Shown here one piece after another: positions 58,602-63,385 of a stretch of 64,000 bases of DNA. The DNA lies in IMG/VR virus record IMGVR_UViG_3300045015_000053. The stretch is one strand, 5' to 3'. The notes beneath the pieces were generated by a model. The model made no database searches and was not told where the DNA came from. It saw nothing but the letters and a program-made list of their open reading frames with translations. Source of the DNA: a virus. Its lineage: Duplodnaviria; Caudoviricetes. How positions within the stretch are numbered: the stretch's first letter is position 1; each line of letters opens with the position of its first letter. A program made the translations under genes and the position numbers.

Positions 58602-58675
58602 GGCCCCGAAAGCTTTAGCTAGATGAGCAACAGCCTTTTAAGCTGTGGAAGAGGGTGCGATTCCCTACGGGGCTA
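58602..58675 (+). tRNA. tRNA-Lys(TTT), non-canonical (A8, T loop TGCGATT)
   Basis: ACAGC-CTTTTAA-GCTGT; GGCCCCG/CGGGGCT. Confidence 0.8.
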
Positions 58676-58681
58676 CTGAAT

Positions 58682-58754
58682 GGCCCGCTTGCTACAACGG
58701 AGAAGCGCCGAGCTTTTAACTCGGTCACGGTCGGTTCGATTCCGACGCGGGCTA
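58682..58754 (+). tRNA. tRNA-Lys(TTT)
   Basis: CCGAG-CTTTTAA-CTCGG; TTCGATT T loop. Confidence 0.9.
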
Positions 58755-58771
58755 CTCCAAATGACGTGTAA

Positions 58772-58859
58772 TTGTGTTGTCGTTGTCACCGCGAGTTGCA
58801 TGCCAACTTGCTTGACAAAATCACACTGCAAAAGACTTACGAAGCTGAATGGGAAAGAC
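58772..58859 (+). pseudogene. 3' remnant of an HNH endonuclease
   Basis: After TAA 58769 the frame reads LCCRCHRELHANLL, like the CANCHRKIHHGLI/CSNCHRKLH ends of the two intact HNH genes. Confidence 0.55.
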
Positions 58860-58933
58860 GGCTGTGTAGCATAATTGGTAGTGCGACGGTTTCATAAGCC
58901 GTGTCAGCGTCGGTTCGACTCCGACCACAGCTA
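58860..58933 (+). tRNA. tRNA-Met(CAT), elongator-like (Ile2 not excluded)
   Basis: GGCTGTG/CACAGCT; ACGGT-TTCATAA-GCCGT. Confidence 0.85.
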
Positions 58934-58989
58934 CTAACGCCTGGATTCATCTCCGGGCCGTTCTTTGACAAGTAGGTAAGCCATAATAC

Positions 58990-59030
58990 GGTGACTCACA
59001 CGTCAATTACCAGTTGACGTGTGAGTCACC
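58990..59030. other. 17-bp perfect inverted repeat
   Basis: GGTGACTCACACGTCAA-ttaccag-TTGACGTGTGAGTCACC. Confidence 0.85.
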
Positions 59031-59036
59031 TGAAAC

Positions 59037-59108
59037 GGCCCGTTCGACTTCTGGCGAGGTCAGCAGTTTTTCAAACTGTTCAGGCGAGATCGAAACTCGC
59101 ACGGGTCA
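59037..59108 (+). tRNA. tRNA-Glu(TTC), non-canonical (T loop ATCGAAA)
   Basis: GGCCCGT/ACGGGTC; GCAGT-TTTTCAA-ACTGT; GCGAG/CTCGC. Confidence 0.75.
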
Positions 59109-59174
59109 CTGCACGACATTGCGGATGATAGAACCTGTCAAAAGGTTTAGCGCCTTCTGTAATGCGTGCTACAT

Positions 59175-59246
59175 GGCCCATTCGACTTCTAGTGAGGTCA
59201 CCTGTTTCTCGAACAGGTCAGGTCGGAGCGTAACCGACATGGGTCA
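59175..59246 (+). tRNA. tRNA-Glu(CTC), non-canonical (T loop AGCGTAA, no D-loop GG)
   Basis: GGCCCAT/ATGGGTC; CCTGT-TTCTCGA-ACAGG; GTCGG/CCGAC. Confidence 0.72.
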
Positions 59247-59265
59247 CTGACGGCTTCCAAAGAAT

Positions 59266-59336
59266 GCGGGATTGATGAAGTGGTATCGTGTCACGCTTCC
59301 AACGTGAACTCGCCGGTTCGATTCCGGCATCCCGTA
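59266..59336 (+). tRNA. tRNA-Gly(TCC)
   Basis: TCACG-CTTCCAA-CGTGA; A73. Confidence 0.9.
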
Positions 59337-59393
59337 CTTGCAAGGTTCCATTTTTGTCTATAGTGTGTGGGGCAACTCAAACACGAGGCAATC

Positions 59394-59690
59394 ATGAAAC
59401 GGCAAAAGATCAAGCTCGAAGGCGGTCCACTGGATGGCGCGGAGATGGAGGTCGATGAACACATCTTCAAGTCCATCTTGGCTCAAGGTGGGCTGACGCT
59501 GGAGTGGCCCTTCGAGGAAGAAAAGTTCGATCCGATGAAGTTTACAGTCAGGGCGAACAAACCCGTGACGTATCAGGATCGAGGAATGTCGTCAATCGAT
59601 GATCAACCGATTTACGACTACGAATCGGCGTACCCTCTGTGGTACGAAAACGACAAGGACCAGATCATGGAAATGATCAAAGGTAATTAA
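59394..59690 (+). CDS. hypothetical protein inside the tRNA array
   Basis: GAGG RBS; IKLEGGPLDG motif. Confidence 0.65.
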   Translation: MKRQKIKLEGGPLDGAEMEVDEHIFKSILAQGGLTLEWPFEEEKFDPMKFTVRANKPVTYQDRGMSSIDDQPIYDYESAYPLWYENDKDQIMEMIKGN

Positions 59691-59699
59691 GTTGATCTT

Positions 59700-59832
59700 G
59701 TTGTGGTAGCTCAGTAGTAGAGCAGCGGACATGGCGAAAGCCTGTTGTCTCGCAATTTTTGCCCGCAAGGGATGCCTGATGGGATTACATTTTAATCCGC
59801 CGGTCGCAGGGTGCGAATCCTTGCCCACAACA
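59700..59832 (+). tRNA. tRNA-Lys(TTT) with 59-nt intron-like insert (59731-59789) between positions 32 and 33
   Basis: GTTGTGG/CCACAAC-A; GCGGA/TCCGC stem; removing 59731-59789 gives loop C-TTTTAA. Confidence 0.75.
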
Positions 59833-60856: not shown

Positions 60857-60858
60857 AC

Positions 60859-60929
60859 GCGGGATTCGTTTAGTGGCAAGATCCAACTTTCCCAAAGTTG
60901 AGTCGCCGGTTCGATTCCGGCATCCCGTA
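60859..60929 (+). tRNA. tRNA-Gly(CCC)
   Basis: CAACT-TTCCCAA-AGTTG; A73. Confidence 0.88.
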
Positions 60930-60933
60930 CTGT

Positions 60934-61006
60934 GGGCCATTGGCATGTCTGGCGATTGCAGCGGACTGTTAACCCGCCGAGGTTGGTTCGATTCCAACAT
61001 GGCCCT
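60934..61006 (+). tRNA. tRNA-Asn(GTT)
   Basis: GCGGA-CTGTTAA-CCCGC. Confidence 0.88.
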
Positions 61007-61026
61007 CTCGCTCCAAGAAAGGCAAC

Positions 61027-61281
61027 ATGAGCAAGACAACGTATTACCGGCAGTGCCGACTTCAACGCGGCAATTGCCACCAAGTGAGTTGGATTCCCGA
61101 ACCGTACTGCGTCAAGGACAAAGTCCTGAAGCTCAAGAACAGTGACGGTGTTTGGGAGAACGGATGGGTGGTGAAGGGAGCCGGAACCAACCGGATCACC
61201 GACGTGCCGCACGCCGAAGGTTTGATTCGCGCACACCGGAAAGCTACTGGTGATTCGCTGCCGAAAGGTCCGAACAATTGA
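61027..61281 (+). CDS. hypothetical protein inside the tRNA array
   Basis: AAGG RBS; YRQC.L...VSWIP. Confidence 0.65.
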   Translation: MSKTTYYRQCRLQRGNCHQVSWIPEPYCVKDKVLKLKNSDGVWENGWVVKGAGTNRITDVPHAEGLIRAHRKATGDSLPKGPNN

Positions 61282-61284
61282 AAC

Positions 61285-61342
61285 AGGGGCAGGGTTTAGC
61301 CACCCTGATCGGTCGGGAGTAGCTACCCCGCCCGTGGCCCCT
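61285..61342 (+). ncRNA. two-arm tRNA-like element
   Basis: GGGGC/GCCCC closing helix; AGGGT-6 nt-ACCCT; GGtcGGG-AGTAGCTA-CCCcgCC. Confidence 0.4.
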
Positions 61343-61346
61343 ACAC

Positions 61347-61417
61347 GCGGGATTCGTTAAGTGGTAAGACGCATGCTTGCCAAGCATGAGACGCCGGTTC
61401 GATTCCGGCATCCCGCA
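61347..61417 (+). tRNA. tRNA-Gly(GCC)
   Basis: CATGC-TTGCCAA-GCATG; A73. Confidence 0.9.
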
Positions 61418-61544
61418 CTCCGATTTTGAAGGCTCTGGTTCCCCTTGTGGGTGGTAAAAAGATCGCGCATAATCATCACGTTGCTGCGATTGGGCTGTAG
61501 AAATCGAAACCCCCAATGTCTGCGTAGCAGACAGGGAGTAAGTG

Positions 61545-62720
61545 ATGAGTGAGAAGCTACACGTCAACGTCGGCACCATCGGTCACATCGACCACGGGAA
61601 GACCACGTTGACGGCCGCGATCCTCGCGGTACAGGAGAAAAAGGGACTGGCAAAGGCGAAGGCGTACAGCGCCATCGCGAAGGGCGGAACGGTTCGGGAC
61701 GCGACGAAGGTCGTGACGATCACGTCGAGCCACGTCGAGTACGAGAGTGACAAGCGTCACTACGCACACGTTGACTGCCCCGGTCACGCCGACTACGTCA
61801 AGAACATGATCACGGGCGCGGCCCAGATGGACGGGTCCATCCTGCTGCTTTCGGCCACTGACGGGCCGATGCAACAGACCCGCGAACACGTCCTGCTCGC
61901 AAGGCAGGTGGGCGTGCCGCAGATCGTGGTGTTCATCAACAAGTGCGACGTGGTTCAGGACCAAGAGATCCTCGAACTGATCGAGTTGGAAACAAGAGAG
62001 ATGCTCACCAAGTACGGGTTCGACGGTGACAAGACGCCGATCATCCGTGGCGCGGCGAAGCCGGCTCTCGACAACCCGACCGACCCGGAGAAGACCAAGT
62101 GCATCAGCGACTTGCTCGCCGCACTCGACAGCTACATCCCCGACCCCGTCCGCGCCGTCGAGCGGCCTTTCCTGATGTTCGTGGAAGGCGTCCACCAGAT
62201 CGTGGGACGTGGCACGGTAGCTACCGGCAAGATCGAACAAGGTGTCGTCAAGGTCGGCGACAAGGTCGAAATCCTCGGCCTCGGCGACATGAAGGAAAGC
62301 GTCGTCACCAGCATCGAAGCCTTCAACCGTCAACTGGAAGACGGGACCGCCGGACAGAACGTCGGCATCCTGCTTCGCGGTGTGAAGGCCGAAGACCTAC
62401 AACGTGGTCACGTCTTGGCCGCTCCCCGGAGCATCAAGCCGCAGACCAAGTTCAAGGCTCAGGTGTACGTTCTGGGCAAGGAAGAGGGTGGGCGGCACAC
62501 GCCGTTCATGAGCGGGTACAGCCCGCAGTTCTTCTTCCGCACCACGAACGTGACCGGGACGCTGACGCTGCCGGAAAACATCGACATGGTCATGCCGGGC
62601 GACAACGTGGCTCTCACCGTCGAACTGGAAAAAGCCGTGGCACTCGAAGCGGGTAGCCACTTCGCCGTCCGAGAAGGCGGCAAAACCATCGGTTCTGGAC
62701 AAGTGACCGAGGTGCTGTGA
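61545..62720 (+). CDS. tuf: elongation factor Tu
   Basis: [65 protein letters not shown]. Confidence 0.97.
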
Positions 62721-62783
62721 AGATCTAGTAGTTAAACAGGGGGAGAACTGGCCCCCACCCCGTCGCGAGACGGGGCTACTGAT

Positions 62784-62854
62784 GGCCCTATAGTCTAGTG
62801 GCAGGACGTAACCCTCTCAAGGTTAAGATTGGAGTTCGATTCTCCATAGGGTCA
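62784..62854 (+). tRNA. tRNA-Glu(CTC)
   Basis: TAACC-CTCTCAA-GGTTA; TTCGATT T loop. Confidence 0.9.
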
Positions 62855-62903
62855 CAGGCTCGACTACGTCCGACGCTCAGTTTTTCGGACGTTATAATTT
62901 GTC

Positions 62904-63329
62904 ATGGAGAAGACATGTTACAAGTGTAAACAATTGAAGCTTGCGGACGAGTTCTCGAAAGATACTCGGAGTAAAGATGGGTTGTGTGCGGCTTGTAGAG
63001 CTTGCCGAAGCGAGCTTAAAAAGCAGTATTACAACCGCGAACATGATGGCTTGAGGATCAAGCAGCTTGAGAAGCGTCGGAAGCTTCAGGATTGGGTTAG
63101 CACATTCAAGAAAGAGTGTAGTGTTTGCGGAGAGGATCATCCGGCTTGTTTGGATTTTCATCATGATGGCGAGAAGGAAGCAGGTATTGCCAACATGATC
63201 AATCGCAACAATATGACCGACGAAATGAGATCGAAGGTTTTGGCTGAGATCGCCAAATGCAAAGTCTTGTGTTCAAACTGTCACAGGAAGTTGCACTGGA
63301 AAGAAAGAAGAGAAGGCCCATTCGTCTAG
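62904..63329 (+). mobile_element. HNH endonuclease (paralog of 60245), stop codon inside the next tRNA
   Basis: CYKC...KDGLCAACRAC; CSVCGEDHPACLDFHH...KCKVLCSNCHRKLH; TATAAT plus 5 nt before ATG. Confidence 0.88.
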
Positions 63330-63385
63330 TGGTAGGACATCAGATTTTCACTCTGACAACCGGAGTTCAATTCTCCGATGGGTCA
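63315..63385 (+). tRNA. tRNA-Glu(TTC)
   Basis: TCAGA-TTTTCAC-TCTGA; TTCAATT T loop. Confidence 0.9.

Follow-up and report, generated by a model that had tools for sequence, protein, structure and literature searches.

Duplicate tRNA genes with compensated elbow changes in a fragment of a huge phage: a possible second set of elongator tRNAs

We analysed a 64,000-nucleotide stretch of viral DNA (the window; bases 9123-73122 of the 188,369-bp IMG/VR record IMGVR_UViG_3300045015_000053), in which positions 58602-63385 carry two kinds of gene for several anticodons of tRNA-Lys, tRNA-Glu and tRNA-Gln, one canonical and the other structurally deviant. CheckV puts the completeness of the record at 37%, and therefore the record is a fragment of a huge phage genome; the sequencing runs found to contain the window sequence are lake-water metagenomes, with no RNA run among them. 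Judging from their sequences and those of their relatives, the deviant genes are very probably real, maintained and functional tRNAs, and in four of them the elbow formed by the T loop and the D loop has been changed in a compensated manner. We see about an even chance that these genes supply the phage with a second set of elongator tRNAs that function in translation and follow conserved designs carried by phages, the elbow switch having been selected because it removes U54 or U55.

A sequence-only reading of this interval had described a parallel set of deviant Lys, Glu and Gln tRNAs beside a phage EF-Tu gene. The coordinates and loops given there for both kinds of copy agreed with ARAGORN, Rfam and the sequence, and so did the acceptor stem common to Glu 59175 and Glu 63315 (GGCCCAT/ATGGGTC), the G8, long D region and identical variable loop and T arm of the Gln copies at 59839 and 60117, and the TGCG T loops of the Lys copies (genes are named by their first position in the window; Table 1). 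The stems had been described as fully paired, which was right for nearly all of them, but not for the outer D-stem pairs of the Gln copies (U.U) or for pair 49-65 of Lys 58602 (G.A). The argument against random decay was strengthened, as relatives carry the copies with compensatory changes in every stem and in the tertiary pairs.

The deviant genes have the features of class I elongator tRNAs by ARAGORN and by folding, namely a 7-bp acceptor stem, a 5-bp anticodon stem, a 7-nt loop with U33, a sense anticodon and a T stem closed by G53:C61; the element at 59700 has them only when a 59-nt insert is removed. The cloverleaf was the minimum-energy fold for all six of the RNAs tested (five deviant copies and Lys 58682). 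The canonical copies scored 56-66 bits with Rfam, Lys 58682 excepted.

A conserved design for tRNA-Glu

Both deviant Glu genes belong to one design, called type-B here, the hallmarks of which are A11:U24, U13.G22 and a D arm of the form GACTTC-NGGN-GAGGTC. The D arm of Glu 59037 is GACTTC-TGGC-GAGGTC, and the two window genes have in common the arm GACTTC-NNNN-GAGGTC and a 4-nt variable loop. Neither gene gave an Rfam tRNA match even at E ≤ 10. Acceptor pairs 1-5 and the discriminator are nevertheless the same in all four Glu tRNAs of the window, canonical and type-B.

In a pattern scan of IMG/VR, at least 59 among the 120 matches listed were type-B tRNA-Glu genes located in tRNA arrays of phages. 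When 41 distinct type-B Glu sequences were aligned (A1), 98.8% of the cells were paired, with both-sided changes in 16 of the 24 pairs, and none of 500 shuffles matched this pairing and covariation, which indicates strong purifying selection on the stems. The same arrangement as in the window was found in a 436-kb relative (G003; EF-Tu 72% identical), where type-B UUC and CUC genes adjoin two canonical-type Glu genes. The G003 orthologues of Glu 59175 (L042 7879 and 7957) have GG in the D loop and a TTCGACT T loop, and thus the window gene is doubly changed at the elbow relative to them.

Among arrays with at least 10 other tRNAs, 15 of the 25 that carry the A54 form, and 9 of the 15 that carry the U54 form, showed no Glu(UUC) tRNA besides the type-B gene. 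Since the type-B gene is often the only Glu(UUC) tRNA seen, it would be a working decoder and not a shadow, and these counts also tell against the suggestions, made in the sequence-only reading, that the deviant copies are decoys or non-ribosomal aminoacyl donors.

The window Glu region gave no match when searched with BLAST against cultured phages, and the commonest type-B sequence matched only RsoM2USA and one uncultured huge phage. RsoM2USA, a cultured Ralstonia jumbo phage, has one type-B Glu gene with a canonical-type Glu gene directly after it; in its sequence (MG752970; L287 11722-22218) ARAGORN found 17 tRNA genes where the record lists protein-coding genes only. Among the 23 ARAGORN tRNAs of T5, the type-B Glu design, A54 and G55 were all absent. 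CCA is encoded by none of the tRNA genes of our record, almost all of which have a C directly after the discriminator; type-B Glu genes associated with Proteobacteria do encode CCA.

Replaced and compensated elbow bases

U54, U55, G18 and G19 are described as universally conserved in tRNAs, the noted exception being A54 of the eukaryotic initiator (PMC7912444). These invariants are replaced by A54 in Glu 59037, by A54, G55, U58 and A18 in Glu 59175, and by G55 and A18 in Lys 58602 and in the element at 59700. We examined the tertiary pairs in the 1176 unique tRNAs that ARAGORN predicted in all the DNA retrieved, most of which came from phage loci, with stretches of Planctomycetota genomes in addition. 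Positions 54 and 58 were U:A in 1090 of these, A:U in 49 and A:A in 22, and U:U was never seen. In two type-B Glu genes (L052 and L053) the 54/58 swap is the sole difference. The D loop had AG instead of GG in 20 of the 23 tRNAs with G55 loops and in 3 of the 1028 with UUC loops (Fisher p = 6e-32), and the G55 loops were distributed over 16 loci and 12 amino acids. Altogether about 12% of the ARAGORN-detectable tRNAs sampled, mostly phage-encoded, swap invariant elbow bases for matched pairs.

Because these tertiary replacements covary as pairs, the elbow is, as far as sequences can tell, rewired and not eroded, with U54:A58 becoming A54:U58 or A54:A58 and G18:U55 becoming A18:G55, and the tRNA fold is probably kept. 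The exposed G19:C56 pair is untouched by the A54 and G55 switches. A separate observation is that T loops with U56 accompany TGA D loops (G18 A19) at many phage loci, a Watson-Crick switch of the G19:C56 pair. On T-loop variants in phage tRNAs the literature yielded only anticodon-loop work, and in the papers that could be searched no description was found of a systematic occurrence of two structural designs per anticodon or of compensated elbow states.

Deviant Lys and Gln genes

Lys 58602 has a 3-nt connector after the acceptor stem and has two orthologues on a 373-kb contig (L195 10932-11006, 85% identical, and 8526-8600, 83%), which adjoin the Gln homologue of that contig. The orthologues have D loop TAGCTGGAT with GG and T loop TTCGATT where the window gene has TAGCTAGAT and TGCGATT, and so this comparison gives a direct view of GG with UUC against AG with UGC. 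Compensatory changes separate them in the D stem and in the anticodon stem; the T stem of Lys 58602 consists of 4 bp plus the G.A at 49-65, which the orthologues keep. The gene at 58682, taken as the canonical partner in the sequence-only reading, does have a standard UUC T loop, but it scores low for a canonical copy and its D arm is atypical.

The third Lys gene, at 59700, was correctly recognized as Lys-like with a TGCGAAT loop, but it is not a plain tRNA. It has an acceptor stem, a D arm, a T arm and a 5-bp anticodon stem, with a 59-nt structured insert (59731-59789) in the anticodon loop, and deletion of the insert would restore the 5-bp anticodon stem and a CUUUUAA loop. The anticodon loop would then be identical in all three Lys genes. 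Four DNA runs were compared, and they contained either identical sequence or short unrelated tRNA matches; the one informative variant pair came from a near-identical strain, in which 59808 A>G and 59809 G>A both keep the T-stem pairing. The 59-nt module is one of eight copies scattered in the tRNA region of the genome. A reading of the module as a Y RNA found no support in Rfam, where neither YrlA (RF02553) nor any ribozyme family matched at permissive thresholds. A 601-aa frame of the record gave a weak TROVE (Ro60) match, of 20 bits against a cut-off of 23.

In the two deviant Gln genes, which have G8, a D stem of 6 bp encloses the 6-nt loop GCUGGU; between the two genes the D stems differ by a compensatory change from C-G to G-C. 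An alignment of four sequences (A2), which includes homologues from the complete 532-kb genome G002 and from the L195 contig, was 96.7% paired with 15 of 23 pairs doubly changed. The double changes include two outer D-stem pairs, the same pairs that are U.U in the window, and the GCUGGU loop is invariant among the Gln copies and these homologues. With the Glu alignment and the Lys orthologues, covariation across relatives is thus present in all three groups, without free drift. The strict Gln pattern matched only G002 in IMG/VR, a looser pattern there gave about 95% chance matches, and in five Planctomycetota genomes the D-loop pattern was no more frequent than in a reversed control.

Bacterial tRNA-Sec has a D arm with a 6-bp stem and a 4-nt loop. 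The long D stem and small D loop without U8:A14 liken the Gln copies, and possibly type-B Glu, to it; unlike tRNA-Sec, they have an acceptor stem of 7 bp and not 8, Gln or Glu anticodons and not UCA, and no long variable arm. The Gln D-arm design is also present in Asn tRNAs of the record and of Planctomycetota islands, where the 6-bp D stem occurs with a 6-nt G(C/U)UGGU loop (genome 78302-78378; L418 1923-1998; L419 1440-1515). In many bacteria, glutamine and asparagine are the two amino acids that arise through transamidation on the tRNA.

Related genes in Planctomycetota

The type-B pattern matched 56 tRNA-Glu genes in cellular genomes, mostly of Planctomycetota, and Glu 59037 is 75-79% identical to such genes. 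We considered whether type-B is the housekeeping tRNA-Glu of this phylum and rejected this. The complete chromosome of Pirellulaceae SH467 has 38 dispersed canonical tRNAs, all with UUC and GG and including canonical Glu(UUC), Gln(UUG) and Lys genes, and its type-B Glu gene is located in a 13-kb island with at least 29 low-scoring, oddly built tRNAs. Since the housekeeping Glu of SH467 is canonical and the type-B gene lies in an island, the design is, from its genomic placement, best regarded as a mobile-element or phage type. The island itself (L418, L458; about 604-617 kb) may be a huge-phage remnant or a mobile tRNA array; among its genes are a Met of 69 nt, an Ala of 69 nt, a Trp of 71 nt and a Thr with an A18:G55 elbow. 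Planctomycetota islands also contain tRNAs of 74-76 nt with Leu anticodons and no long variable arm (L419 1664-1737, L423 940-1014, L458 3049-3206).

Canonical Gln 60650 and 60726 are 82-84% identical to chromosomal tRNA-Gln of Planctomycetota, and a Pirellulaceae chromosome has, within its tRNA island, a Pro(CGG) gene that shares 81% identity with the 75-nt Pro(CGG) copy of the window. The similarity of the tRNA and tuf genes is a hint that the host may belong to the Planctomycetota.

Other genes of the record

Of the 50 tRNA genes that ARAGORN predicted in the 188-kb record, 20 lie in the window; Rfam gave 41 and 18, and a tmRNA, which is a full-length gene at window positions 6702-7079 (113 bits). 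According to ARAGORN, anticodons are duplicated across the record for Met, Asp, Asn, Trp, Ile, Pro UGG, Lys CUU and Gly, and T loops off the standard were also found in Asp, His, Pro(GGG), Ala and Arg tRNAs. Deviant or duplicated tRNAs cover at least ten amino acids, and a Pro(CGG) pair that the sequence-only reading had passed over lies within the interval itself, and therefore the set is not specific to Lys, Glu and Gln as had been proposed. Some Lys(CUU) and Asn(GUU) tRNAs have a long variable arm that gives them a class II look (genome 73724-73807 and 78383-78472, both just outside the window; L041 5951-6036; L195 10304-10391). The acceptor stem of the long-arm Asn is unchanged in G003 and L195, and in the record and in G003 this gene directly follows a shorter Asn gene. 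Between the Met tRNAs and Lys 58602 lies a 425-nt non-coding stretch (58138-58562) that folds well above shuffles (z -4.7), has a strong terminator-like hairpin at its end and matches none of the Rfam families; this stretch probably encodes a structured RNA.

Table 1. Positions in the window of the tRNA genes and neighbouring genes of the interval
Feature	Positions	Strand	Basis
tRNA-Lys(UUU), elbow A18:G55, D loop TAGCTAGAT, T loop TGCGATT	58602..58675	+	Rfam 30.5 bits; missed by ARAGORN
tRNA-Lys(UUU), standard UUC T loop, 'canonical' partner	58682..58755	+	ARAGORN; Rfam 33.6 bits
tRNA-Glu(UUC), type-B, T loop ATCGAAA (A54:A58)	59037..59109	+	ARAGORN; without Rfam match
tRNA-Glu(CUC), type-B, T loop AGCGTAA (A54:U58, G55), D loop TAGT (A18)	59175..59247	+	ARAGORN; without Rfam match
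tRNA-Lys(UUU)-like gene, D loop AGTAGTA, T loop TGCGAAT (A18:G55)	59700..59834	+	Sequence, fold
tRNA-Gln(UUG), G8, 6-bp D stem, 6-nt GCUGGU D loop, standard T loop	59839..59914	+	ARAGORN; Rfam 40.9 bits
Two tRNA-Pro(CGG) genes (75 nt at 59919, 72 nt at 59996)	59919..60067	+	ARAGORN
tRNA-Gln(CUG), 6-bp D-stem design as in 59839	60117..60192	+	ARAGORN; Rfam 39.2 bits
HNH endonuclease gene, 3' end overlapping tRNA 60650	60245..60664	+	phrog_2255, E 8e-31
Canonical tRNA-Gln(CUG) at 60650 and tRNA-Gln(UUG) at 60726	60650..60797	+	Rfam 56.2 and 58.6 bits
EF-Tu gene, ordinary bacterial type with three domains	61542..62720	+	Pfam GTP_EFTU, D2, D3
Canonical tRNA-Glu(CUC)	62784..62855	+	Rfam 65.9 bits
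HNH endonuclease gene, 3' end overlapping tRNA 63315	62904..63329	+	phrog_2255, E 3e-26
Canonical tRNA-Glu(UUC)	63315..63386	+	Rfam 63.5 bits

The EF-Tu protein scored 556 bits to solved EF-Tu structures and retains the REGG and PQF motifs. The HNH protein encoded at 62904 is 37% identical to that encoded at 60245; outside the window, sites of the same family are found at genome positions 74571-75113, 80185, 85545, 86846, 113781, 118415 and 132109, and several of the matches end within the next tRNA gene. Searches for PF00749 (GluRS/GlnRS) and PF00152 (class IIb synthetases) found neither in the 188-kb fragment, which is 37% complete, nor in G003. Two class IIb synthetases are encoded by the complete genome G002, together with a bacterial-type GluRS (L040 8929-10842; gltX_bact 398 bits) that is extended at its N terminus by about 195 residues. 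The record also encodes RNA ligases of the Rnl1 and Rnl2 types, and these fit a history of tRNA damage.

Discussion

These analyses lead us to a reading in which the deviant tRNAs would be expressed, charged by the synthetases of their canonical partners and used on the ribosome, and the huge phage would thereby own a second, structurally different tRNA for many anticodons. We favour working elongators because stems and tertiary pairs are maintained, because the anticodons are sense anticodons, and because of the acceptor stems shared among the Glu genes and the sole-decoder status of the Glu design in other arrays. The elbow switch, for its part, would have been selected for removing U54 and/or U55, bases that a T-loop-directed host tRNase needs, and the phage would hold a sensitive and a resistant copy of one decoder. 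As a purpose for the deviant copies, nuclease-resistant spares may be the most attractive one.

One enzyme with such a requirement has been described. CbCash, a Schlafen tRNase that belongs to type III CRISPR systems and is activated by cA4, cuts the UUC motif of the T loop 5' of U55, and a single substitution of U54 or U55 abolishes the cleavage; whether phage tRNAs are targeted is an open question according to its authors (PMC13462974). The positions required by CbCash are exactly those changed in 58602, 59037, 59175 and 59700. However, CbCash is a Chloroflexi enzyme assayed in E. coli, and a nuclease of this kind in the host of the phage studied here is hypothetical. That the elbow switch is an adaptation for evading defence is a tentative proposal, and one that we would sooner doubt than assert. 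A wider form of it, in which phage tRNAs systematically re-code the elbow by three compensated switches (U54:A58 to A54:U58, G18:U55 to A18:G55 and G19:C56 to A19:U56), countering host enzymes that recognise or cut the T-psi-C loop and carrying matched sensitive and resistant versions of a decoder, seems to us rather unlikely.

Several points weigh against selection on the elbow. The two Gln copies retain U54 and U55 in a standard UUCGAUU T loop, and the elbow argument therefore leaves them out. The viral type-B sample was collected with a D-arm pattern, and its D-arm invariance is by construction; ARAGORN is biased to standard T loops, and the frequencies of the elbow states in our sample are distorted. 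Other T-loop variants are as common in arrays with A54 type-B genes (9.4%) as in those with U54 (9.3%), so no genome-wide pressure is apparent. Perhaps the compensated states arose neutrally, where a redundant copy relaxes selection.

Such an origin is part of an alternative history in which free-standing HNH homing endonuclease genes travel as mobile cassettes inside and among phage tRNA arrays and carry along or duplicate adjacent tRNA genes, the redundant copy is relaxed, and T-loop mutations become fixed and are later compensated, with no dedicated role. The lack of an array-wide excess of T-loop variants suits this history, and so does the placement of the HNH family, of which at least ten tblastn matches are interspersed in the tRNA region of the record, with others in relatives. 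Deviant Gln(CUG) 60117 is followed by the HNH gene at 60245-60664 and then by canonical Gln(CUG) 60650, an order repeated for Asp just beyond the window (G55 copy, HNH, canonical copy), and canonical Gln(CUG) and Glu(UUC) each begin inside an HNH gene, an overlap also known between the heg genes and tRNA genes of T5. However, the deviant designs are old and widespread and are not recent duplicates of the canonical copies, and in G003 an HNH gene abuts type-B Glu instead, which leaves no fixed association with either type. The strong purifying selection on the stems, and the frequency with which the A54 type-B gene is the sole Glu tRNA seen in an array, also argue against a relaxed copy, and we consider this history unlikely, although it could account for much of the pattern. 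The sequence-only reading had looked to anticodon nucleases that act on wobble-U tRNAs (PrrC, RloC, PARIS AriB), for which the deviant Lys, Glu and Gln copies would be decoys or resistant spares. Rescue of infection from such nucleases by phage tRNAs is known (PMC10264068; PMC11555353), both types of RNA ligase are encoded by the phage, and positions 32, 37 or 38 differ between some canonical and deviant pairs. These are, however, the only anticodon-loop differences in the Glu and Gln pairs (position 38 alone for Gln), and the Lys loops do not differ at all. The recurrent compensated changes lie in the elbow and the D arm, far from the anticodon, the deviant or duplicated tRNAs extend beyond Lys, Glu and Gln, and a design that in many arrays is the one Glu tRNA seen would hardly serve as a decoy. 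Together these findings make an aim at anticodon nucleases very improbable.

Another proposal of the sequence-only reading was an orthogonal set, charged by phage synthetases and/or delivered by the phage EF-Tu and thus insulated from host factors. Base pair 11:24 is an identity element for E. coli GluRS, and the A11:U24 of type-B Glu inverts that pair; the GluRS of G002, with its N-terminal extension, and the two class IIb synthetases of that genome could be such enzymes, and the low completeness of our record leaves room for others. Against this, the canonical and type-B Glu tRNAs agree in acceptor pairs 1-5 and at the discriminator position, neither the fragment nor G003 has a gene with PF00749 or PF00152, and type-B Glu is also found in phages and genomic islands without a linked synthetase in the stretches fetched. 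The supposed link to EF-Tu found no support either, since in ten relatives the EF-Tu gene is flanked by Leu, Ser, Tyr and Phe tRNAs, far from the Glu, Gln and Lys genes, and the protein is of the ordinary bacterial type. We therefore regard insulation from host factors as most improbable. The deviant copies could also be non-ribosomal aminoacyl donors serving a tRNA-dependent transferase, like the staphylococcal cell-wall tRNA-Gly, the elbow of which, according to the sequence-only reading, they resemble in having lost the standard D/T-loop consensus in an extra isoacceptor. In staphylococci the altered loops are associated with evasion of EF-Tu and with a transferase of the cell wall, whereas here the tertiary pairs are compensated and not lost and the T stems are strong G-C helices. 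No transferase partner turned up, no search having been aimed at one. Moreover, a non-proteinogenic tRNA would be expected always to stand beside a proteinogenic isoacceptor, and many phage arrays show no Glu decoder other than type-B Glu, in its A54 or its U54 form. This role is hardly credible.

A second set of elongators has several counterparts among known systems. Jumbo-phage and genomic-island tRNA arrays are likewise dense, with 20-60 tRNA genes and several copies per anticodon, and the 13-kb Pirellulaceae island contains the same type-B Glu. T5 also has large tRNA arrays interspersed with HNH genes; its tRNA-Lys reportedly acts against PARIS and its tRNA-Tyr against Retron-Eco7. Phage anti-nuclease tRNAs (van den Berg et al. 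2023, PMC10264068; the retron-evading tRNAs of PMC11555353) are phage-encoded duplicates of decoding capacity, as these are, and they differ from the sensitive tRNA at bases that the nuclease needs, for which there is here a candidate only. Their changes are in the anticodon loop; ours are in the T and D loops (54, 55, 58 and 18), with tertiary compensation, and the standard and the variant copy are both carried by the phage, unlike in those systems. The eukaryotic initiator tRNA-Met has A54 and A60 with an A54:A58 pair (PMC7912444), and the AUCGAAA loop of Glu 59037 likewise has a purine-purine A54:A58; unlike the initiator, the type-B tRNAs are bacterial-phage elongators with Glu anticodons and lack initiator features, and most members of their family have A54:U58.

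Spare tRNAs encoded by phages are a known theme, to which the genes described here add a new structural variant. They also expose an annotation gap, in that Rfam misses the two type-B Glu genes of the window, ARAGORN misses Lys 58602 and the RsoM2USA record shows no tRNA feature where ARAGORN finds 17 genes, and phage tRNA inventories are therefore undercounted. For a clade of huge phages from lakes, the matches to Planctomycetota islands hint at the host. The T-psi-C loop and G18/G19 are textbook invariants, and here they are swapped at positions that a CRISPR-linked tRNase needs. If the wider proposal of a systematic re-coding by phages is true, the elbow would be a second front of the tRNA arms race, which is now known only for the anticodon loop.

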